From the NCBI GenBank assembly GCA_963702665.1, contig CAVPDP010000019.1, positions 331,023 through 395,022 on the forward strand: 64,000 bases of DNA, read 5' to 3'. Each line of letters opens with the position of its first letter. Position 1 is the stretch's first letter. A model generated the notes under the pieces. It had not been told where the DNA came from, ran no database searches, and saw only the letters and a list, made by a program, of their open reading frames with translations. This document shows, piece after piece, positions 7,330 to 51,459 of this stretch. The stretch is from an uncultured Chloroflexia bacterium. Lineage in GTDB: Bacteria > Chloroflexota > Ktedonobacteria > Ktedonobacterales > JADMIN01. Both the position numbers and the translations under genes were made by a program.

Positions 7330-8547
7330 CTAAACGGCGGCTTGTGCTTTCTCGATCAAGGTGTGCGCCTGTGTCTCAGCGGCTTCCGCCTCAGACATAC
7401 GACCAAGCATGCGCAGCAACACGCTTTTGTTTTTCCAGTACTCTATCCCGTCTGGGTCTGTGGAAATCTGATGTGCAACCTTTGCCAAGCCTTGTAGCGC
7501 GGCTGCCTGGGCTTCTTCCGATTGTCCAAGGTGAGCCAAAGCATCAGCCTGAATTATCCATACCGTGGATGATTCAGGCCCCAATGGCAAGGCTCTTCGG
7601 GCAGTGTCCAGGGCATCCGCATAGTTACCTGTGCTATTCAATGCGCCTGCCTTTGCTACCAAAGCCATCCCTTGCCATATATCAAATGTGGCGTTGAGGC
7701 CGCCATTGAGCGCCCGCTCAGCGGAAGCCAGAGCCTGCTCAGGGAATCCTGCGCGCTGGAGGAGGTACGCCTTCTGAGCCCATGAATAGGGATAGTTTGG
7801 CTTGAGCGTGAGTGATTGGTCAATGGCAGTCAGTGCTTCGTTCAAGCGATACATGGACAAGAGGATACCGCTCTTGAGCAGCAAAATTCGCGCGCGGAAT
7901 GGATCGGAAGACGGCTTAGGATTTAATGTCGCCACTGCCTTCTCACATGATAGAAGCGCCTCAACCCAGTGTCTCTGCCCCGTGAGGGTTTGTGCTTTGC
8001 CATACCATGCATTCGCATCCTGTGGATGTTTGGCCAACATACGCTCGTAGATCACCTGGGCTTCTGTATAGCGTTTCTTATTGAGAAGTTTGGTTGAGCG
8101 ATACATGCTGTATACGTATGCTAACAATTGCCCGCTACTTCGGACATCATAGACAAAGACCGTTGCGACGACCAGAAATGCAATAGCGCCTATTTCGAGG
8201 GACTGGCCGGTGACATGGCCATCTGGGCCTAGCGCGAAGTCAGAAAGAAACACATACAAGCAAACCCCGAAGCCAATTGAGACAAGAATGGTAAACGTAG
8301 CGACTCCCAGCAACGGCTTACGGCCCATCGTAAGGAGCATCCGGGTAGCCAGGCGTATCACGATGCCAAGCGCGGCAAGGAGAAAGACTCCTCCCCAGAA
8401 CAGCCAGAACAATACGATATCCACTTGTTGACCCCCGATATGTAGAGAAAGCCTACCATCCCCCAATACTCTCTCATGATAACAAAGGGCGTCAACGCAT
8501 CTTATCCAGATACCTATGTAGATACAATGGGTGACAGGGGCCATCAA
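7330..8547 (-). CDS. membrane-anchored TPR-repeat protein
   Basis: 405 aa with N-terminal TM helices followed by multiple TPR-like repeats (NAWYGKAQTL..., YSWAQKAYLLQRAG...). GC is visibly lower than in the flanks. The start is uncertain. Confidence 0.6.
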   Translation of the reverse strand: MMAPVTHCIYIGIWIRCVDALCYHERVLGDGRLSLHIGGQQVDIVLFWLFWGGVFLLAALGIVIRLATRMLLTMGRKPLLGVATFTILVSIGFGVCLYVFLSDFALGPDGHVTGQSLEIGAIAFLVVATVFVYDVRSSGQLLAYVYSMYRSTKLLNKKRYTEAQVIYERMLAKHPQDANAWYGKAQTLTGQRHWVEALLSCEKAVATLNPKPSSDPFRARILLLKSGILLSMYRLNEALTAIDQSLTLKPNYPYSWAQKAYLLQRAGFPEQALASAERALNGGLNATFDIWQGMALVAKAGALNSTGNYADALDTARRALPLGPESSTVWIIQADALAHLGQSEEAQAAALQGLAKVAHQISTDPDGIEYWKNKSVLLRMLGRMSEAEAAETQAHTLIEKAQAAV

Positions 8548-8587: not shown

Positions 8588-9956
8588 TCAGACGCGGGTG
8601 CTGCGCCAGCGTCCGCTGCGGAAGCGCCAGTAGGAGAGGCCAGCCTGGGTCCAGAAGTCGAGGCCCATCGCCAGGCGCGCTCCCGGCAACCCCCACAATG
8701 GTATCAGCAGCGCCGCCACTGGCAGCCGCAGACCCCATGTGCCCGCCGCGCGCACCACCACCGGAAAACGGGTATCGCCCGCGCCACGTAACGCGCCGTT
8801 GAAGACGAAGCTGCACGCCGAGGCGGGCATCAGCACCAGCGAGAGACGCATGGCGATGTCGCCCGCGTTCAACACCGACCGATCGGCGACGAACACGCCG
8901 AGCAAGAGGTGGGGTATGAACGCCTCGAAGAGGCCAACGATAATCATGACCACGACGGCAGGGCGCAGCGATGCCCAGACCGAGCGCTCAGCCAGCCCGG
9001 CGTCGCGCGCGCCAAGCGCCTGACCGACCAACGCCGTCGCCGCGACCGAGAAGCCGAAGCCCGGCAGCGTGCCGATGCTATCCACCGTGTTGATGGTCAC
9101 ATTGGCGGCGTAGGTGACTGGCCCCAGGCCAATGACGACACGATTGAAGGTCAGCACCCCAAGCTGGAAGACGACGAGTTCAGCCGCAGAGGGCAGCCCA
9201 ACCTTGAGTACCCGTCCCATGACGCTGAGACTGGGGCGAAGCGCCGCGCGGGTGAGCCGTGGCGCGCGCGGATGGTGGCGCGTTATCAGGATAGAACGCG
9301 AGGATGCAGCCGAATGTCCATCCGGTGGCGGCGCCAATGGCGGAGCCAACCACGCCAATCGTCGGAATCCCAAGCGCCGGAACGCCATTCATCAGGGTCC
9401 AGGAGGCGATGATATTCGCGCCGTTGACGACCAGCATCACCAGCAGTGGACGCCGCGCATCGCCCGCGCCACGCATCGCCGCGTTCATGGCGGAGGCAGC
9501 GCCCGCAGCGGGCATCGTCAGACTGTAGACGCGAATGTATGACGCCGCAAGTTCGGCCTCTTTGCCGCTGACGCCGAGCAATTCGATGATGCCATGCGCG
9601 AGCGGGATCGCCAGGCCAATCATCGCCAGACCGATGATCGCGCCGAGCCAGATGCCCTGGCCAACCGTGCGCGCGGCGAGGCGGCTATCGCGCGCGCCAG
9701 TTGCCCGCGCCACCAGCGCCGTCACCCCGATATTGACGCCGAAAAAGACGGTCAGCACGATCCATGCGGCGGTGCTGGCAATGCCGACGGCGGCCACTGC
9801 CGTCGCGCGCCCATAGCCGAGCGTGTGAACAGCCTGATCTGCCAAATGACCAGCGAGGAAGGTATCGGAGACGCCGACACCGAGCGAGAGCAGTTGTTCG
9901 CCAATCGACGGCAGCGCCAGTCCCCAGACGCGGCGTTTCAGATCTTTGTCCGCCAT
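8588..9956 (-). pseudogene. MATE-family efflux transporter, split by a frameshift near 9296-9310
   Basis: ORF 9180..9956 is the N-terminal MATE half (LALPSIGEQLLSLGVGVSDTFLAGHL). ORF 8588..9388 is the C-terminal half (LKVGLPSAAELVVFQLG...). They join if one C is removed in TATCCTGAT, giving ...ILAFYLITRHHPRAP... Confidence 0.8.
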
Positions 9957-13556: not shown

Positions 13557-14938
13557 TTATATCCGTTCGCAGCGCGCGACGCACTCGATATGCGTGGTGA
13601 ATGGGAACATATCCACTGGCTGCACCGATTCCAGCCGGTAGCCGTTCTCGCACATCACACGCAGATCGCGGGCAAGTGTCGAGGGGTCGCACGAGACATA
13701 GACGAAGGTGCGTGGCGCCAGTCGCCGTATCTCACTCAACGCCCGTGGCAGGCAGCCAGAGCGCGGCGGATCGACCAGCACGACATCGACACGGTCGCGT
13801 TGCGGATGCATCGCGCCGAGAACGCGCTCTAAGACCCCTTCAGTGGCGATGACATTGGTGGCGCCGTTGAGGATGGCGCTGGCGCGGGCGTCGGCCACGG
13901 CGCCTGGCTGCGACTCTATCGCATGCACCGCCGCCACGTCGTCCGCCAGAATCAGCGAGAACAGGCCAACGCCACTGTAGCCATCGAGCAGATAGTCCGC
14001 TGGCGAGAGCTGCGCCGCCGAGCGCGCCTCACGCACGAGTATGGGCGTCTGGGCCGCGTTCACCTGAAAGAACGACCCAGCGGAGACCCGGTACGTCTTA
14101 TTCAGCACGCGCTCATAGATGAAATCAGCGCCAGCGACGACGCGGCCATGTCCACCGGGAATCCCAAGAATCACGACACCTGCCAGCCCCGGCAGTTCCC
14201 TGAGCATCGTGTCGGCGAGCGCTGCCACGTCATCTACCTCGGCAAACGCGCTGGCGGTACGCGCCTCGATGGTCAGCAGCCCCAGGCCGCCGGGCGCTGC
14301 TTCTGGCGCCTCTGGCGACTCGGCTCTGGCGCGTTCGCGGCGACACGCAGTGTGAATCGCTCGGTGTAGTTGGCGGCTGCCATGCCCCAGTGTTCCCGCA
14401 TCCAGGCGCGGACATCCGTGTAGAGCGCATCGAGCGCCGGATGCACCAGCGGGCAGGTGGGCATATCCAGCACGTCGTGGCTGTTGGCGCGGCGGAAGCC
14501 AATCGCGCCATCCGGGCCAATGGCGAACTGGGCGACAGTGCGATAGCGCCAGCGATCGCTATCTTCGGGCATGCCAATCGTTGGCAACACGGGTGGCTGC
14601 GCGAAGTGACCCAGGCGTCGGAGCAACTCCTGGACGATGTGTGTCTTCCAGGTGAGTTGAGCGGGGTAGGCGATATGCTGCCATTGAAAGCCGCCCGATT
14701 CGGCCAGCTCTGGATAGCGCGGCGCGACGCGGTCTGGTGACGCTTGAATCACCTCAACCAGTTCGCCGCGCGCATACGTCTTGGATTCGCTCACCACGCG
14801 GATACGCACGCGCTCGCCAGGTATGCCGCCAGGCGCGAAGATGGCGCGCCCATTGTATCGGCCTACCGCGTCGCCGCCATAGGCGAGATCCACCAATTCC
14901 ATTTCCAGAAGCGCGTTCCCTGGATCCGCTCCCGACAT
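13557..14938 (-). pseudogene. TRAM-domain 23S rRNA (uracil-5)-methyltransferase (RumA/RlmD/TrmA family), split by a frameshift near 14300-14345
   Basis: ORF 14273..14938 holds the TRAM and central domains. ORF 13557..14228 holds the SAM-MTase domain (LLDGYSGVGLFSL, VLVDPPRSG, VYVSCDPSTLARD). The cluster cysteines of classical RumA are absent. Confidence 0.8.
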
Positions 14939-15064
14939 ATGGGATCATCCTTCCCGCAAAATGCCAGTAATGGCAGCAACTACAGGATAACTGGTACACC
15001 GCTGTATTGTAGCATATGTGTAAGAAATGGTGGCCGAAGAACGTGGGGTTGTGGCGGGTACAAT

Positions 15065-16135
15065 CTATCCCAGCGCGCGTCGCCGAGCAGGTGATGGATG
15101 GCGCATCGTCGCAATCGTCAGCAATACCGCTCCAAGGCCCGCAGTGCTCACCAGCGCACGAATGATTCCCCCAATGATGGGCGCGGTGCAGGCGATGGCG
15201 AGCAACGTCACCCCAATGACGGTCGCAAGGATGAAGGGGAATCGCCGGTATTGCGTCGCTCCCGGTACCAGCGCGCTGCCAATCCAGAGGCCGAGCGCCG
15301 CCGTGCCAAAGATGGAGCCTCCCCAGAGTACCACACCAATCGCCAGCGCCAGCGGGATGCCAAGACAACTCAGCACGAGCACGATGGCCGCGACGAGGCC
15401 AATAACATAGGCGAGCAGGCCAAAGAACAGACTTCCCACAGGTTGGCGGCGTGCCATGAGCCGCACCCGAATGAGTTGCGATGGCAGAAAGAGTGAGATA
15501 ACGAGGCCTGAAAATGCCCAGAACATCACATCGGCCCAGTCGAGCCGGACAGGAATGATGCTGGTGATGTTGGGGATTGTGAACTGGTCGGTGGAGATGC
15601 CACGATCGATTTGGCCGCCTACCACCACACCGGGCGAGCTGCTGACAGAGCCGCCTACCGCCTGCACATCACCCGCGACATGCGCGCCTGGCAGCAGCGT
15701 TATGTTGCCGCCAAGCGCGAGCACGCGCCCGTCTACCTCGCCAGAGATGGCAATATCGCCACCGACCGCGACGACATCGCTGCTGACGCGCCCAAGCACA
15801 GTGATACCGCCACCATAATCCGTCACGTGGCCGCAATACCATTGATGCGCGTCGATGACAACATCTTTGCCAAAGATATCGAGGCTCGACGGTGTGCAAC
15901 TGGTCAGTTGCGCGTTTGTCCTGGTGGGCGCCGCGCCTGCCAGGAGGCCGCCAGATGCCAGTGTCAGACGGTCGGGCTGTTCTGTGTGTGTTCCATTGTG
16001 GTGAGGCGAGGCGAGGACGAAGACGACACCAAAGAGCGCTATTCCACCGAGGAAGGCAGCCAACAGAATCATGTAGCGAGCGTGCGGGGAGGTCTCTGAG
16101 GCGCGCATAGGGCGATCAGGCTTCCTGCGGGTCAC
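15065..16135 (-). CDS. membrane protein with bactofilin-like (polymer-forming) beta-helical repeats and a polytopic C-terminal domain
   Basis: One N-terminal TM helix, the repeat region VVAVGGDIAISGEVDGRVLALGGNITLLPGAHVAGDVQAVGGSV, then about 5 TM helices. It is the last gene of the ECF sigma operon. Confidence 0.5.
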   Translation of the reverse strand: MTRRKPDRPMRASETSPHARYMILLAAFLGGIALFGVVFVLASPHHNGTHTEQPDRLTLASGGLLAGAAPTRTNAQLTSCTPSSLDIFGKDVVIDAHQWYCGHVTDYGGGITVLGRVSSDVVAVGGDIAISGEVDGRVLALGGNITLLPGAHVAGDVQAVGGSVSSSPGVVVGGQIDRGISTDQFTIPNITSIIPVRLDWADVMFWAFSGLVISLFLPSQLIRVRLMARRQPVGSLFFGLLAYVIGLVAAIVLVLSCLGIPLALAIGVVLWGGSIFGTAALGLWIGSALVPGATQYRRFPFILATVIGVTLLAIACTAPIIGGIIRALVSTAGLGAVLLTIATMRHPSPARRRALG

Positions 16136-24031: not shown

Positions 24032-24288
24032 CTCTGATGGCTCCTTAATCACCCGAATCACCCGCGCGAATATGTTAGCGGCTTGAGCCACTACCCCGAC
24101 AGGCCACTCTCTGCCAAGCATACAATGTGTCGGCATGTCAGGGCAATGCGTAGGCGCCCAAAACCAGACGTTCACACTCTATGGACGGATCAAGTGCGAG
24201 CGACTGTGCTATCAGGTTGGATTCCCGCTGGATGTGAGGATGCGGGTCTACAGTTTCGGATGGGGTGGTTCATCATGCGTCGGCATCA

Positions 24289-24507
24289 CTACGTTCCTGG
24301 GCAATACGTTTTACTTTCGGCTAATTCTTCGTCGTCAGCCCCCAAGGCGCGCAAGAGTTCTTCATCGGTGAAGTAGATGGTTCCCTGAGTCTCAGTGAGC
24401 GCGTTGACCATCCGCTCAATAAGCTGCTCGGGTGTCTCCTGGTCACGTGCTGCTACCTGACGCAGGGTCTCATATTGCTCATCAGTGAGTTCAAAGACGT
24501 GGCTCAT
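24289..24507 (-). CDS. small acidic helical protein, paralog B of a tandem pair (3' end apparently frameshifted)
   Basis: GAGAGG lies 7 nt upstream of ATG 24507. The peptide begins MSHVFELTDEQYETLRQVAA... Compared with paralog A, an extra base at 24311-24319 shifts the tail. The corrected frame reads ...KRIAQERSDADA with its stop at 24273. Confidence 0.6.
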   Translation of the reverse strand: MSHVFELTDEQYETLRQVAARDQETPEQLIERMVNALTETQGTIYFTDEELLRALGADDEELAESKTYCPGT

Positions 24508-24518
24508 CAGCCGACCTC

Positions 24519-24737
24519 TCAATCGAAGGCAATACGTTTTGCTTCGGTGATTTGCTCGTCTGTCGCCCCAAGATGGTGGAACCAGTCATCGGTGGTGAAT
24601 GCATGGGAGGATGCCTGGCGGTTGTGCAATTCTTGTATCAACGCTTCGATAAGCGCATCAAGCGTCTCTCCCCGCTCATCGGCAGCTTGCCGCAATGTTT
24701 CATATTGCTCGTCGGTAAGTTCAATGATATGGCTCAT
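24519..24737 (-). CDS. small acidic helical protein, paralog A of a tandem pair
   Basis: GAGAGG lies 7 nt upstream of ATG 24737. The 72-aa peptide reads MSHIIELTDEQYETLRQAADERGETLDALIEALI...FTTDDWFHHLGATDEQITEAKRIAFD. Its stop overlaps the SD of paralog B. Confidence 0.65.
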   Translation of the reverse strand: MSHIIELTDEQYETLRQAADERGETLDALIEALIQELHNRQASSHAFTTDDWFHHLGATDEQITEAKRIAFD

Positions 24738-24843
24738 ACGCCTGCCTCTCATGTGGGAATGCATCATCATGATGACGTGTTCCATTCCACTGTATCACGC
24801 AATGAAACAGCGCCAGAGACCAGCCGTTTGCGACAGGCAGACG

Positions 24844-26315
24844 CTACAGCTTCGGGATGAGGGGACCCAACTGGTCCGCAGCGGGTTCCGCTCAGCAGAA
24901 CCACGGCTCGCTCAGATGGGGTACGGGGCGTCGCGCCCGCCGCAATGCGCCTGTATCGTCACGTGTATCGTCACCGACGCCCGCGCCCACCAACACTGGA
25001 ATCGATGTCCCCAGCCGCTCCGAGGCCAGACGTGGATGGCGGCAAACGTCACCGGAATCGGCTCGCGCGCGCTGGCGGCGCGTTCGACAATCGCCTGTAC
25101 CTCGCGCTGCAATGCATCCATGCGCGGGTCGGGGTGTTGCCAGGTGTAGCTGAGCGCCTCTTCATCCAGCGGGCCAAGCCACGCCCGCCCGTCGGGGTCA
25201 TCCAGCAGCGCGGAACCGGGCGGTACCAGCAGTCGGATGGCATACTGGATCGGGTCGACGTGTTCGATCAAATCGTGTTCGGCGATGAAGTCGAGCACAT
25301 CGAGGTAGTCGCGCGCGGTCGTCCACGGCGTGAAGGCGACGAACGTGGGCCGCATCGGGATACCCGCGTCGTCCAGGATGCCCAACGCCTCCGCCACATC
25401 GGCGCGACTGTGCCCCTTCTTCAGGTGGCGCAGCACGCCCTCGCTCAGCGATTCGACGGCGGAGACGACGAAGATGCAGCCGAGCGCGGCCAGCTCAGGG
25501 AAGACCTCGCGGCGCTCCAAAATATGCTCCACCTTGATCGTCGCGTCGAAGGTGACATCGGGAAACTCGGCGTGGAGCGCGCGGGCGATTTCCAGCGAGT
25601 GGCGCGGCCCATTGAGAAAATCGGGGTCGCCAAAGGTGATGTGCTCGACGCCAGCGCGCACCTGGGCGCGGATATCTTCGAGGACGAGCGGGCGTGGCAC
25701 GACGAAGAAGCGTCCGCCATAGACGGGCGTAATGGGGCAGTGGGCGCAGGTATGCAGACAGCCACGGCTCGCCTCGACGTATCCCGCCGGAACCACCTCG
25801 TCGCCGCGCACCAGATAGGCGTACGACTGCGGCGCAGGGAGCGCGCTGCGTTCGGGTACGGCGTGATCTAGCCGCCGCAGCACAGGGGTCGCCTGATGCT
25901 CGCGCGTGCGCACGCCAGGAATCGCGCCCGCGTCTGACGTTTCGAGCGACTCGGCCAGCGCCAGCAGCGCCTCCTCATACTCGCCGCCGATCACCGAGTC
26001 GGCGATGGTTCGCAGCAGATACTCGGCGTTGAGGGTGGCGTAGAGGCCGTAGACGCAGATGTGGGCGGTGGGGTTGAGCCTTCGCACACGCGCGGCCACA
26101 TGCATGCCCAGGCGCAGCGCGGTATGCATCGGCGCGGAGACGGCCACCAGTTTCGCCCGCATGATGGCCTGGTCGGAAAGCTCGGAGACGGATGTATCCA
26201 CCGCCGCCGGGGAAAATCCAGCGCGGCGCAGAACCGCCAGTGGCGAGGCAAGACTCAGCGGCTGGTGGCCCAGTTCGTAGCATGCTACCAGCAGGATCGC
26301 GCCGGGGTCTCTCAT
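24844..26315 (-). CDS. B12-binding-domain-type radical SAM protein with a C-terminal CUAEP selenocysteine tail
   Basis: N-terminal Rossmann-like domain (ILLVACYELGHQPLSLASP...), radical SAM CxxxCxxC (SRGCLHTCAHCP). The called stop at 24912 is bypassed in the adjacent frame, which reads ...PHLSEPWFC-UGA(24892-24894)-AEPAADQLGPLIPKL-TAG(24844-24846). This needs one frame change between ~24920 and ~25050. Confidence 0.8.
24863..24877 (-). promoter_or_regulatory. SECIS-like hairpin 14 nt downstream of the radical SAM UGA
   Basis: GGACC-AGUUG-GGUCC. The apical loop starts 20 nt after the UGA and has G at its second position. Confidence 0.45.
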
Positions 26316-26632
26316 TTCTTCGCAGGCGCCGCAGGTGCGCCGCCCTTGCCTTTGGCGCCGCTCGCTCCCTCAGGAACCCAGCCCTCCGGCATCTGTTCAT
26401 CCTCACCAAAGAAGAACTTTTCCATCTCCTGCCGGAGGATCTGGCGCGCATCGGGGTCGGCCAGATTGAGACCGTAGTGGTTGATGAGCAGGCGTGAATG
26501 TTCCTGCCACATGTCCCAGGCCTCCTGAGAGATATTCTCATAGATGCGCTGGCCCAGTTCACCGGGAACCGGCGGTTTCTCCAGACCCGGCAACTCCTGG
26601 CCCAGTTTGACACAATGCACCATTCGCGCCAT
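26312..26632 (-). CDS. yggX: Fe(2+)-trafficking / oxidative-damage protection protein YggX
   Basis: MARMVHCVKLGQELPGLEKPPVPGELGQRIYENISQEAWDMWQEHSRLLINHYGLNL aligns closely with E. coli YggX as I remember it. Its TGA overlaps the radical SAM ATG (ATGA at 26312-26315). Confidence 0.88.
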   Translation of the reverse strand: MARMVHCVKLGQELPGLEKPPVPGELGQRIYENISQEAWDMWQEHSRLLINHYGLNLADPDARQILRQEMEKFFFGEDEQMPEGWVPEGASGAKGKGGAPAAPAKK

Positions 26633-26805: not shown

Positions 26806-28104
26806 ATGACGAGCAAAGGTACGGCGATTCTTGGCGGCGGCGCGCTGGGGCTGACGCTGGCGTGGCGGCTGGCGCGCGCAGGTGAACGCGTGGTGGTCTA
26901 TGAGCGTGAGCCATTGGCGGGCGGTCTGGCGGCGGGCTTTCGCGTGGGCGAGGAGTGAAGGTGCCCGTGGTTGGAGAAGTTTTACCACCACCTTTTCCGT
27001 AGCGACCACGACGCTATCGCGCTGATTGGCGAACTTGGGCTGGCGGATAAGCTCTACTGGGGCCATCCCAACACCAGTTCGCTGATCGATGGCAAGCCGT
27101 GGCGATTGGATGGGGCGCTGCCCGTGCTGAAGTTCGCGCCGCTGCCGGTTGTTGACCGGCTGCGGCTGGGGGCGGTCGCCGCGCTGATGAAGGCGCTGCC
27201 CAACGCGAACCCGCTGGAGGGCGTCACCGCCTCGGCATGGCTGCGGCGCTGGCTTGGCCCACGTGGCTATTCACTGGCCTTTGAGCCGCTCTTTCGCGGC
27301 AAGTTCGGCGCATACGCCGACGAGATCGCGATGCCGTGGTTCTGGGCGCGGATACATTGTCGCACGTCCGCGCTCGGCTATCTGCGCGGTGGTTTTCAGC
27401 AGTTGTACGAGGCGCTGGCCGCTGGCATCCAGGCGCATGGCGGTGAGGTGCGACTCGGCGTGACGGTGGATTCCGCCCGGCCCGCCGATGATGGCGCCTG
27501 GCAGGTGACGACTGCGGCGGGCGAGGAGCGATTCGCCCGTGTCGTCTCGACGCTGCCAACGCGCGTGACATTTCGGGTCGTGCCCGATCTGCCCGCCGAC
27601 TTCCGCACGCGCTACGACTGGGGGCTGGCCTACGGCGCCCACTGCCTGATTCTGGCGCTGGATCGCCAATTCATGAAGGATGTCTACTGGCTGAGCATCG
27701 CCGACGAGGGCTATCCATTTCTGGCGGCGGTGGAGCATACCAACTACATCCCGGCGGAGGAGTATGGTGGTCGCCATCTGCTCTATCTCGGCAACTATCT
27801 GCCCATGGATCATCCGTTGATGCGCGCTACCCCACAAGAGGCGCTGGAGCAGTTCGTGCCGCATCTCCAGCGGCTCAATCCCGCCTTCTCACGCGACTGG
27901 ATCACCGATATGTGGGGATTCGCCGCGCCGTTCGCCCAGCCCATCGTCACCCGCGACTATCGCGCGCACATCCCGCCGCACGAGACGCCGCTGCCCGGCC
28001 TCTACCTCGCCAACATGTTCCAGGTCTACCCGCAGGATCGTGGCCAGAACTATAGCATCAAGCTGGCGAATGGGCTGGCGCAACGGCTGGCGCTGGCAAG
28101 GTGA
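26806..28104 (+). CDS. NAD(P)/FAD-dependent oxidoreductase (amine-oxidase / phytoene-desaturase-like fold) interrupted by one in-frame UGA
   Basis: ATG 26806 is followed by a dinucleotide-binding fold (TAILGGGALGLTLAWRLARAGERVVVYEREPLAGGLAAGF), then GAG GAG TGA(26956-26958) AGG TGC. The rest continues in the same frame (LEKFYHHLFRSD... to 28104, track ORF 26971..28104). Confidence 0.8.
26959..26993 (+). promoter_or_regulatory. bulged hairpin immediately 3' of the in-frame UGA (SECIS candidate)
   Basis: AGGUG-ccc-GUGGU-[12-nt loop UGGAGAAGUUUU]-ACCAC-CACCU. That is 10 bp in total, and the loop has G at position 2. Confidence 0.4.
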
Positions 28105-49766: not shown

Positions 49767-51459
49767 ATGACAACTCCACTCGAACACCCAACGCCCGCGT
49801 CGACAGCAGCGAGCGCCACGACTCGCGAGTGGCTAGAAGAGTGGTTGGGGCGGTTCTGGCGGACGCTGCGGACACCAGAAGGCCAGCGGCGGCTCTCGTG
49901 GGCGCTGGTGCTGTTGCTCGTCGTGATCGATAGTATCCTCGTCTGCCAGCATAGCATCGCGCGCTACCAGACCTATCACGCCGACGCCTTTGATCTTGGC
50001 AATATGAATCAGGCCGTCTGGAATACCCTGCACGGCCACCCCTTCCGCTTCACCAATCGTGGGCTAGACTGGTTCGGGCCGCCGACACGTCTCGGCATCC
50101 ATGTCGAGCCTATCCTGGTGTTGATCGCGCCGTTCTACCTCATCCATGAGGGGCCTGAGACCCTGATCGTGATCCAGAACGTGGCGCTGGCGCTCGGCGC
50201 GATTCCACTGTTTCTGCTCAGCCTGCGCCGCCTGCCGGGTCTGCCGCTGCTCGGCGTCGCTTTTGTCGCCTCGTATCTACTCGCGCCGGAGTTTCTGGGC
50301 GCCGCGCTCTGGGACTTCCATAGCGTTGCGCTGGCGACGCCCCTGCTCATCCTCGCGATCTGGGCGCTCGACGCCGGGCGGCTGCGCATCTTCGTCGTGG
50401 CGGCGATTCTGGCCGCGCTCACCAAAGAGGATGTGGCGCTCTCGCTGGCGCTGCTTGGCCTGCTCATCATCGTTTGGAAGAAACGCCCGGCCTTTGGTCT
50501 GGCGGTGACGCTGCTCTCAGTCGCGTATGCCGTGCTTGTGCTTCGCCGTCGTGCTGCCACACTTCAACGGTGGTATCTCCGGCGGCAACAACTTTTGGTA
50601 TCGCTATTCCTGGCTCGGCGGTTCGGCTGGCGCCGCGCTCAAAAACATCCTGAAGAATCCCCTGCTGCCCTTCACCATTCTCGACGCCGACCGCTTTGGC
50701 TACCTGGCGATGCTCCTGCGTACCGGGGGCGGGCTGGGCATCTTCATGCCCGTGCTCTGGCTCTGCGCGTTGCCAGAGTTGGCGGTCAACATTTTGAGCG
50801 CCCACGTCGAGCAGTATAGTGGCTTCTTTCAATATAACGCCGTAATCCTCGCCTACATGATGCCCGCCTCGATCTATGGCGTCGCGGCGTTGCTGGCGGC
50901 GCGTCGGCGCGTCGAGCAGGGCGAGCCTTCGCCCCGGCCAGAGCGTCTCGCGGAGACGGCGCTACGGGCGCGCATCGTGGCGCTGGCGCGGCTGCTGGCC
51001 TGGGGGTGGCGTTGGCTCCTGGAGCGTATCCCGGTACCCTCGCGTTGGATTGCGCCGCTGGTGATCGTCTTGTTGCTGGTGACTGGCTGGTGGAATCTGA
51101 CGGCGACGGCTGGTGGGCTTATCGGGTCATTTTGGCATGCTGGCGACAGGCCGATCCCCTATCAGGCCGAGGTGAACACGCTGCTGGATCGTGTGCCACA
51201 ATCGGCCTCGGTCGCGTCCACTGATTCGTTGAATCCGCGCCTCAGCAGTCGCTATACCATCTATCTGATGCCCGACCCACAATCGTACCTTGCCGACTAT
51301 GTGGCCGTAGATATTCCGAATGCCATCTCCATCTCACAGGCGAGTGACCGACAGATGTTGGGAATCATGTTGCAGTCGGGTCACTACGAGATCGTTGGCC
51401 GCGCAGGCGATGTCATGCTGCTTCATCTTGTAGGCGCGCCAATCGCTCCCGGCGGGTGA
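49767..51459 (+). pseudogene. DUF2079-family polytopic membrane protein, split by a frameshift near 50535-50550
   Basis: SIARYQTYHADAFDLGNMNQAVWNTLHG...HVEPILVLIAPFY... continues after ...SVAYAVLV in ORF 50527..51459 (CFAVVLPHFNGG...). The junction lies at a gtgctt gtgctt duplication. Confidence 0.7.

Follow-up and report, generated by a model that had tools for sequence, protein, structure and literature searches.

We asked whether a radical S-adenosylmethionine (SAM) gene of an uncultured Chloroflexia bacterium ends where its called open reading frame (ORF) ends, or continues through an in-frame UGA that is read as selenocysteine (Sec). The gene lies on the minus strand of a 64,000-nucleotide stretch (GenBank assembly GCA_963702665.1, contig CAVPDP010000019.1, positions 331,023 to 395,022), the whole of which was analysed and is called the window; positions count from its first letter. 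The called ORF runs from 26315 to 24912 and encodes 467 aa, ending ...HCGGRDAPYPI before a TGA at 24914..24912. One frame over on the minus strand, translation of the window is open from 25161 and reads ...RLASERLGTSIPVLVGAGVGDDTRDDTGALRRARRPVPHLSEPWFC / ...GALRRARRPVPHLSEPWFC, then TGA (24894..24892), AEPAADQLGPLIPKL and TAG (24846..24844). All coordinates given in a preliminary description of this locus, those of the called ORF end, the open tail frame, the UGA, the TAG and a small hairpin between the last two, were reproduced. We conclude with high confidence that 26315..24844 on the minus strand is one gene, which encodes a protein of ~490 aa of NCBIfam family NF040546 in a Ktedonobacterales-like Chloroflexota genome.

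Family, layout and the break in the reading frame

The called ORF gave NF040546 as its top NCBIfam match, with 678.6 bits at a curated cut-off of 500 bits. The alignment covered profile positions 1-422 of 468 and ended at residue 428. When the body was joined to the -1 frame after ...FAAIH and U was written as C, the score of the frame-repaired protein rose to 712.6 bits and the alignment reached profile positions 1-467 of 468. The profile alignment enters the tail only after this frame correction, which had been proposed before. The 72-aa tail alone matched profile positions 436-467 with E = 2.5e-8, showing that the likeness of the tail is beyond chance. NF040546 is named 'CUAEP/CCAEP-tail radical SAM (seleno)protein', the very name that the preliminary description had given, and the score, the C-[U/C]-A-E-P tail and the CxxxCxxC core with a B12-type domain were all found in the window protein. 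The family is listed as uncharacterised (Haft preprint 10.1101/2022.07.06.499078). The window gene agrees with it in domain order, in the position of the tail motif and in the TGA at the Sec position; it differs by a 1-nt frame break and by a YggX-type gene as the sole partner kept in its lineage, and there is no difference in kind. Both the family and its Cys-Sec motif were curated already, so the gene is a regular member and not a discovery.

Once C25032 is re-read, the frame-repaired protein has 490 aa with Cys474-Sec475. The body of the gene, codons 1-428 (M1..H428; 25032..26315, minus), lies in the frame of the called ORF. It begins with a Rossmann-like, B12-binding-type N-terminal domain (residues 8-120; 25956..26294, minus; PF02310, 33.1 bits, a marginal pass at a cut-off of 32.1), followed by the radical SAM core (residues 181-321; 25353..25775, minus; PF04055, 49.3 bits). 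These Pfam matches bear out the order read earlier from the sequence, a B12-type domain and then CLHTCAHC. The latter is the cluster motif C186-x3-C190-x2-C193 within the core (25760..25737, minus), and its three cysteines were invariant in homologue alignments A1 and A3. The C-terminal extension R429..C474, RLASERLG...RRPVPHLSEPWFC (24895..25032, minus), lies in the -1 frame and matches the C-termini of homologues, for example P0002 and P0027. It contains a 12-nt tandem repeat, two copies of GTGACGATACA at 24974..24964 and 24962..24952 (minus), which codes in frame for GDDTRDDT in a variable linker. The UGA at 24892..24894 (minus), the codon of the predicted Sec475, stands right after Cys474 and aligns with TGA or Cys codons of homologues. 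Behind it come the post-Sec tail AEPAADQLGPLIPKL, a conserved in-frame peptide, and the TAG stop (24844..24891 and 24846..24844, minus). In the repaired protein the Rossmann-like N-domain is thus followed by the [4Fe-4S]/SAM core with CxxxCxxC, by two helices and a variable linker, and by the conserved tail ...HLSEPWF-Cys474-Sec475-AEPAADQLGPLIPKL. Sec475 would be inserted at UGA 24894..24892, aided by a small selenocysteine insertion sequence (SECIS) hairpin within the D-Q-L-G-P codons, and translation would stop at TAG 24846..24844.

The join between body and tail was located by comparison with intact relatives. In tblastn with the proteins of two related loci (L001 and L002), the ORF frame accounted for residues 1-430 (26315..25035) and the -1 frame for residues 432-473 (25032..24895). 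The nucleotide alignments to these two loci and to a third (L081) each contained a single 1-nt gap at ~25033. One C is missing at 25031..25034 (minus), where the window reads ATC CAC -GT CTG and the relatives read ATC CAC CAC/CGT CTG. L081, a contig from JGI that is 93% identical and encodes P0001, gives the closest view: the missing C is the sole frame-breaking difference in 1.47 kb, and from 24905 to the TAG the window equals L081 base for base, so that TGA, hairpin, tail and stop are 100% identical. The preliminary description had placed one frame change in 24920-25050 and pointed to the 12-bp duplication in the same region. The single frame change was found as described, while the duplication proved unrelated to it. 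As a cause of the frameshift the tandem repeat was rejected: it is in frame and harmless, and a partial version of it is present in L081 and P0001.

Other genes of the window are broken in a similar way, in line with the earlier remark that frame changes are frequent here. A MATE transporter with two MatE domains is split over two overlapping ORFs in different frames (8591-9956, minus), and so is a DUF2079 membrane protein (49767-51456, plus), whose two ORFs match the profile at 5-191 and then at 190-310. The divergent flavin amine-oxidase-type gene (26806-28104, plus) is interrupted in frame by a TGA at 26956-26958. The TGA is abolished when one G is taken out and, 12 nt further on, one C is put in; the peptide then reads G-E-S-E-G-A-P-W, where relatives have G-D-S-Q-G-G-P-W. 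Pairs of length errors of this kind are a sign of an error-prone assembly. Because at least three other genes of the window carry indel damage, we regard the frameshift in the radical SAM gene as very probably an assembly artefact. The TGA at 26956-26958 was also considered as a second Sec codon and rejected, since its place in the alignment is a variable Q/S loop and the +1G/-1C indel pair accounts for it. At 14273-16135 (minus), three overlapping ORFs on the same strand, with a Pfam match (TRAM domain) only in the last, may be a further frame-broken gene.

If the frameshift were real, the window would hold a freshly inactivated pseudogene, with a 467-aa product that carries a nonsense C-terminus, or with no product, and in either case no selenoprotein. 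The base is indeed absent from the sequence as given, and the CC-to-C context is a dinucleotide and not a long homopolymer. Yet a decaying gene would have to show this one defect in 1.47 kb while its downstream codons, TGA, hairpin and TAG stay 100% identical to those of intact L081, and it would share the window with several other indel-type breaks, among them, in the adjacent gene, a +1/-1 pair separated by 12 nt, for which a biological explanation is hard to find. We consider a pseudogene improbable. A programmed -1 ribosomal frameshift would also restore the protein, as re-reading C25032 gives the exact homologous ...AIH-RLASERL, but the site has no slippery heptamer and the junction is single-frame in all relatives examined (L001, L002, L081 and 120 database proteins), which makes this explanation vanishingly unlikely.

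The UGA codon and the hairpin behind it

The reading of the UGA was examined in two sets of homologues. Among the 120 best database homologues, mostly proteins from Ktedonobacterales metagenome-assembled genomes and up to 96% identical, 100 terminate exactly at ...[ST]E[PA]WFC and the other 20 run on as WFCCAEPxxxQ.... When one genome per GTDB species was scanned, relatives were encoded at no fewer than 589 loci; 80 of these loci were retrieved, and 76 had the motif. It stood at the same place in all 76, and the critical codon was TGA in 58, TGC in nine and TGT in nine, which answers the earlier question of whether homologues carry C[U/C]AEP at this position. Past the codon, Sec and Cys forms alike keep the peptide AEPTxxQ[FL]xPL in frame, across Chloroflexota, Acidobacteriota, Gemmatimonadota, Nitrospirota, Planctomycetota, Rokubacteria and others, more than eight phyla in all. 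This pairing of UGA with Cys codons, together with conserved coding downstream, is the standard signature of selenocysteine.

The hairpin GGACC-AGUUG-GGUCC (24863..24877, minus), whose stem begins 14 nt past the UGA, had been proposed as a SECIS, and comparison across the family supports this. A hairpin is present at this fixed position in all 57 Sec forms (56 loci and the window). Mean local minimum free energy was -11.4 kcal/mol in the Sec forms and -5.2 kcal/mol in 18 Cys forms (Mann-Whitney p = 1e-7), and in the Cys forms the hairpin is absent or weak. Covariation was tested in the Sec-form alignment A2 on helix columns 19-25/31-37, with 500 shuffles and with slid controls. Paired cells made up 84%, compared with 70.6% in shuffles, and cells with a double change numbered 77, compared with 32; neither value was reached by any of the 500 shuffles, and the slid controls were all at or below 60% paired. 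RNAalifold, run without a given structure, returned the same five pairs, four of them with compensatory changes. At the protein level the covariation leaves a trace in the form of a swap between D-Q-[LF]-G (GAC...GGU) and G-Q-L-D (GGU...GAC). Here RNA structure is shaping protein sequence; protein constraints alone are hard to fit to the swap. In columns 22-24 and 31-33 of A2, Asp...Gly and Gly...Asp change places around Gln-Leu/Phe across genomes, and the stem stays paired.

The apical loop begins 19 nt past the UGA and has a G-U in it. Both the loop position and the G-U agree with the bacterial SECIS consensus. Like the SelB-binding hairpins of the fdhF type, the element lies directly 3' of the UGA and within coding sequence; it differs from them in being very short (5-7 bp, loop AGUUN) and in lacking an Rfam family match. 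The hairpin is a family-wide SECIS-like element and a putative binding site of SelB.

Were UGA 24894..24892 a plain stop, the protein would end ...WFC, and conservation downstream would have to come from, for example, a regulatory RNA or a terminator. Such a reading would suit the termination of 100 of the 120 homologues by gene callers and the position of the hairpin after the UGA. It is hard to reconcile with the 18 loci and 20 database proteins that read through with Cys into the same AEPTxxQ peptide, with in-frame amino-acid conservation past the TGA in more than eight phyla, or with a curated profile that spans the tail; the hairpin, moreover, has no T-run, is just 5-7 bp long and sits inside conserved codons. 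We give a plain stop hardly any credence.

Genes for selenocysteine synthesis were sought in the window and in related loci. ARAGORN found no tRNA genes in the window, and in 60 related loci it likewise found no tRNA-Sec. Homologues of selD were present only in three Blastocatellia loci (L025 3995-4912, L060 1966-2991 and L053 821-1789); they adjoin the ATP-grasp/radical SAM operon in two and lie 8 kb off in the third, and the enzyme of L025 is a Cys form. In the literature, a 2017 paper on tRNA-Sec and selenoproteome reviews contain nothing on the CUAEP-tail family or on a Sec trait in Ktedonobacteria.

Kinship to ArsL, gene partners and proposed chemistry

The second-best NCBIfam match of the window protein was the model of ArsL, an enzyme of arsinothricin biosynthesis (NF040542, 316 bits), and all other radical SAM models scored at most 55 bits. 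An ArsL representative with the RCCLKC tail shares 36% identity over 412 aa with the window protein. In a profile search with the database homologues as query, 739 of 1.84 billion representatives reached E <= 1e-30; of the 150 best, 39 end at WxC and 41 read CCAEP, and proteins with an RCC[LI]KC tail come next. By sequence, ArsL is the sister group of NF040546. The two share the N-domain with the CxxxCxxC core, the W-x-H-P-D-P motif and a vicinal chalcogen pair on a C-terminal tail. They differ in the tail itself, which in the window protein has ~60 residues and reads ...WFCUAEPAADQLGPLIPKL with Sec, whereas that of ArsL has ~20 residues and ends KRCC[LI]KC; the RCCLKC motif is absent from the window protein, and the window has no arsM/arsN context. 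Of the two, only ArsL is known to cleave SAM to methylthioadenosine (MTA) and a 3-amino-3-carboxypropyl (ACP) species, and its C-terminal RCCLKC cysteines bind As(III), the ACP acceptor, and are dispensable for SAM cleavage (bioRxiv 10.1101/2024.02.01.577332; 10.64898/2026.04.29.721666). According to Haft (10.1101/2022.07.06.499078), CU is a rare dipeptide that otherwise occurs in proteins of mercury and organometal chemistry.

An AlphaFold model of a Cys form (P0068) had a class-B-type radical SAM architecture, with a predicted local distance difference test (pLDDT) score of 85 and a predicted template modelling (pTM) score of 0.87. Its nearest solved folds were AprD4, MgmA, TsrM, OxsB and TokK. 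The pLDDT was ~69 at the motif and below 50 beyond it, and the last 15 residues are disordered. By sequence no close solved structure was found, nor was a structure of ArsL. C-terminal arms with a vicinal Cys-Cys or Cys-Sec pair are carried by MerA (CC) and by mammalian thioredoxin reductase (GCUG). As in the window protein, the adjacent chalcogen pair of these enzymes lies near the C-terminus on a flexible segment, but their folds and chemistry are unrelated to it, and the likeness is a functional analogy only.

Immediately upstream of the radical SAM gene lies a YggX-type gene for Fe(2+) trafficking and oxidative-damage protection (26312..26632, minus; 106 aa; PF04362 Iron_traffic, 1e-39; NCBIfam NF003817, 140.9 bits at a cut-off of 74). 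Its TGA overlaps the ATG of the radical SAM gene (ATGA at 26315..26312), and the radical SAM gene is translationally coupled to it. ORFs were then clustered around 81 loci of the family. YggX stands upstream on the same strand in 32 of the 81, all of Chloroflexota type, and this arrangement is also found in L081. An Nfu/NifU gene is downstream in 16 of the 81 (Acidobacteriota and others) and never occurs together with YggX. An ATP-grasp enzyme of the L-amino-acid-ligase (LAL) type is present in 31 loci, in YggX and Nfu contexts alike, a divergent formyltransferase in 23 and DUF169 in 13, and 60 of the 81 loci have at least one of these partners. The window resembles its nearest relatives (L001, L002 and L005) in having YggX alone.

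A few fused proteins are also known: YggX is joined to the radical SAM protein in P0115/P0271, and a LAL ATP-grasp to a radical SAM protein with CCAAP in P0270. P0133 combines a radical SAM protein with CCAEP and a MerB alkylmercury-lyase domain, and P0255 carries GNAT and methyltransferase domains together with an ArsL-type protein. We take the fusions as hints only. No MerB-like gene was present in any retrieved locus. Near the radical SAM gene of the window there is no ArsM-like gene, and the sole match in the window is a weak, generic methyltransferase 33 kb away. Only one of the 81 loci, L009, has a gene for an ArsM-like methyltransferase (7414-7938); it stands ~2 kb upstream of a Sec-form member, and its product shares 51% identity with the methyltransferase domain of the ArsL fusion P0255. 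On the other side of the window gene, just past the selenoprotein stop (24279-24843, minus), are two small paralogous ORFs of 88 and 77 aa, MSH[IV][IF]ELTDEQYETLRQ..., without a Pfam match; their 565-bp segment is missing from L081, and L001 has one related copy.

By analogy with ArsL, we tentatively propose that the family may be ArsL-like enzymes in which a Cys-Sec arm holds a soft heteroatom for formation of a C-X bond and YggX or Nfu services the cluster. The vicinal Cys-Sec on the flexible C-terminal arm would hold a soft, thiophilic atom (a metalloid, a metal or a chalcogen) and bring it to the SAM/cluster site, where a carbon-heteroatom bond would form; selenium would bind such an atom faster and more tightly than sulfur. 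The oxygen-sensitive cluster would be supplied or repaired by YggX in Chloroflexota and by Nfu/NifU in other phyla, and the adjacent LAL-type ATP-grasp, found in many genomes and not in the window, would ligate the resulting amino-acid-like product. A bolder version of this proposal, which is speculative and rather improbable, would make NF040546 a second and far more widespread branch of ArsL-like, non-canonical radical SAM enzymes. The family is present in no fewer than 589 species-level genomes (Chloroflexota, Acidobacteriota, Gemmatimonadota, Nitrospirota, Planctomycetota and others). A soft heteroatom (Se, Te, Sb, As or a metal) on a Cys-Sec swinging arm would receive ACP from SAM, and the product, a 2-amino-4-X-butyrate, would be built by L-amino-acid ligases into a peptide antimetabolite or a detoxification product, with YggX/Nfu as a dedicated cluster-repair partner in aerobes.

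The same architecture might also belong to a canonical 5'-deoxyadenosyl-radical or cobalamin-dependent enzyme, in which Cys-Sec would serve as a redox-active selenenylsulfide arm, re-reducing the active site or a substrate instead of binding a metalloid. This is the chief rival to the proposed chemistry, and we regard it as only slightly less likely than that proposal. The B12-binding-type N-terminal domain would fit it, as would the nearest solved folds, which are canonical class-B-type enzymes and AprD4, and the lack of metalloid genes around the radical SAM gene in the window; vicinal Cys-Sec redox arms are, in addition, established in thioredoxin reductase. What speaks for an arm that binds a substrate is that the sequence sister is ArsL and not any 5'-deoxyadenosyl enzyme, at 316 bits against at most 55 bits for all other radical SAM models, and that the equivalent tail of ArsL binds the substrate, while SAM is cleaved without it. 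Outside the family the CU motif is concentrated in proteins of mercury and organometal chemistry, and one member of the family is fused to MerB.

Several observations count against our account of the locus, some at the level of the gene and others at that of the proposed ArsL-like chemistry. The reading frame from start to UGA is interrupted in the window sequence as given; the interruption bears on the function of the window copy and not on family membership. Neither selA, selB, selD nor tRNA-Sec was found within the 64-kb window (ARAGORN, Rfam, and tblastn with E. coli SelA/SelB/SelD). Folded alone, the window hairpin is not significant (z = -0.85), and Rfam gave no relevant RNA family, either for the whole window at the gathering threshold or for 24800-24950 at a permissive one, so that support for the hairpin is comparative. 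The ArsL score lies below the NF040542 cut-off of 450, and the tails differ in sequence and length; the mechanism rests on 36% identity to ArsL. The LAL, formyltransferase, Nfu and DUF169 partners are missing from the entire window, and the surroundings of the radical SAM gene have no ars, mer or other metalloid genes. The fusion proteins are singletons or a two-member cluster, and no experiment on any NF040546 member was found.

Annotation and meaning

For annotation, the locus should be described as one selenoprotein of ~490 aa (U475) and not as a 467-aa ORF with a garbage C-terminus, and the window assembly needs indel polishing. The result is confirmatory in that the family and its Cys-Sec motif are already curated, and its wider interest is limited to the function of the family and its kinship to ArsL. 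What has been added is a SECIS supported by covariation, the mutual exclusion of YggX and Nfu, a recurrent LAL neighbour, rare fusions and the sister relation to ArsL. Taken together, these amount to a concrete, testable biochemical hypothesis for a widespread enzyme of soil bacteria.

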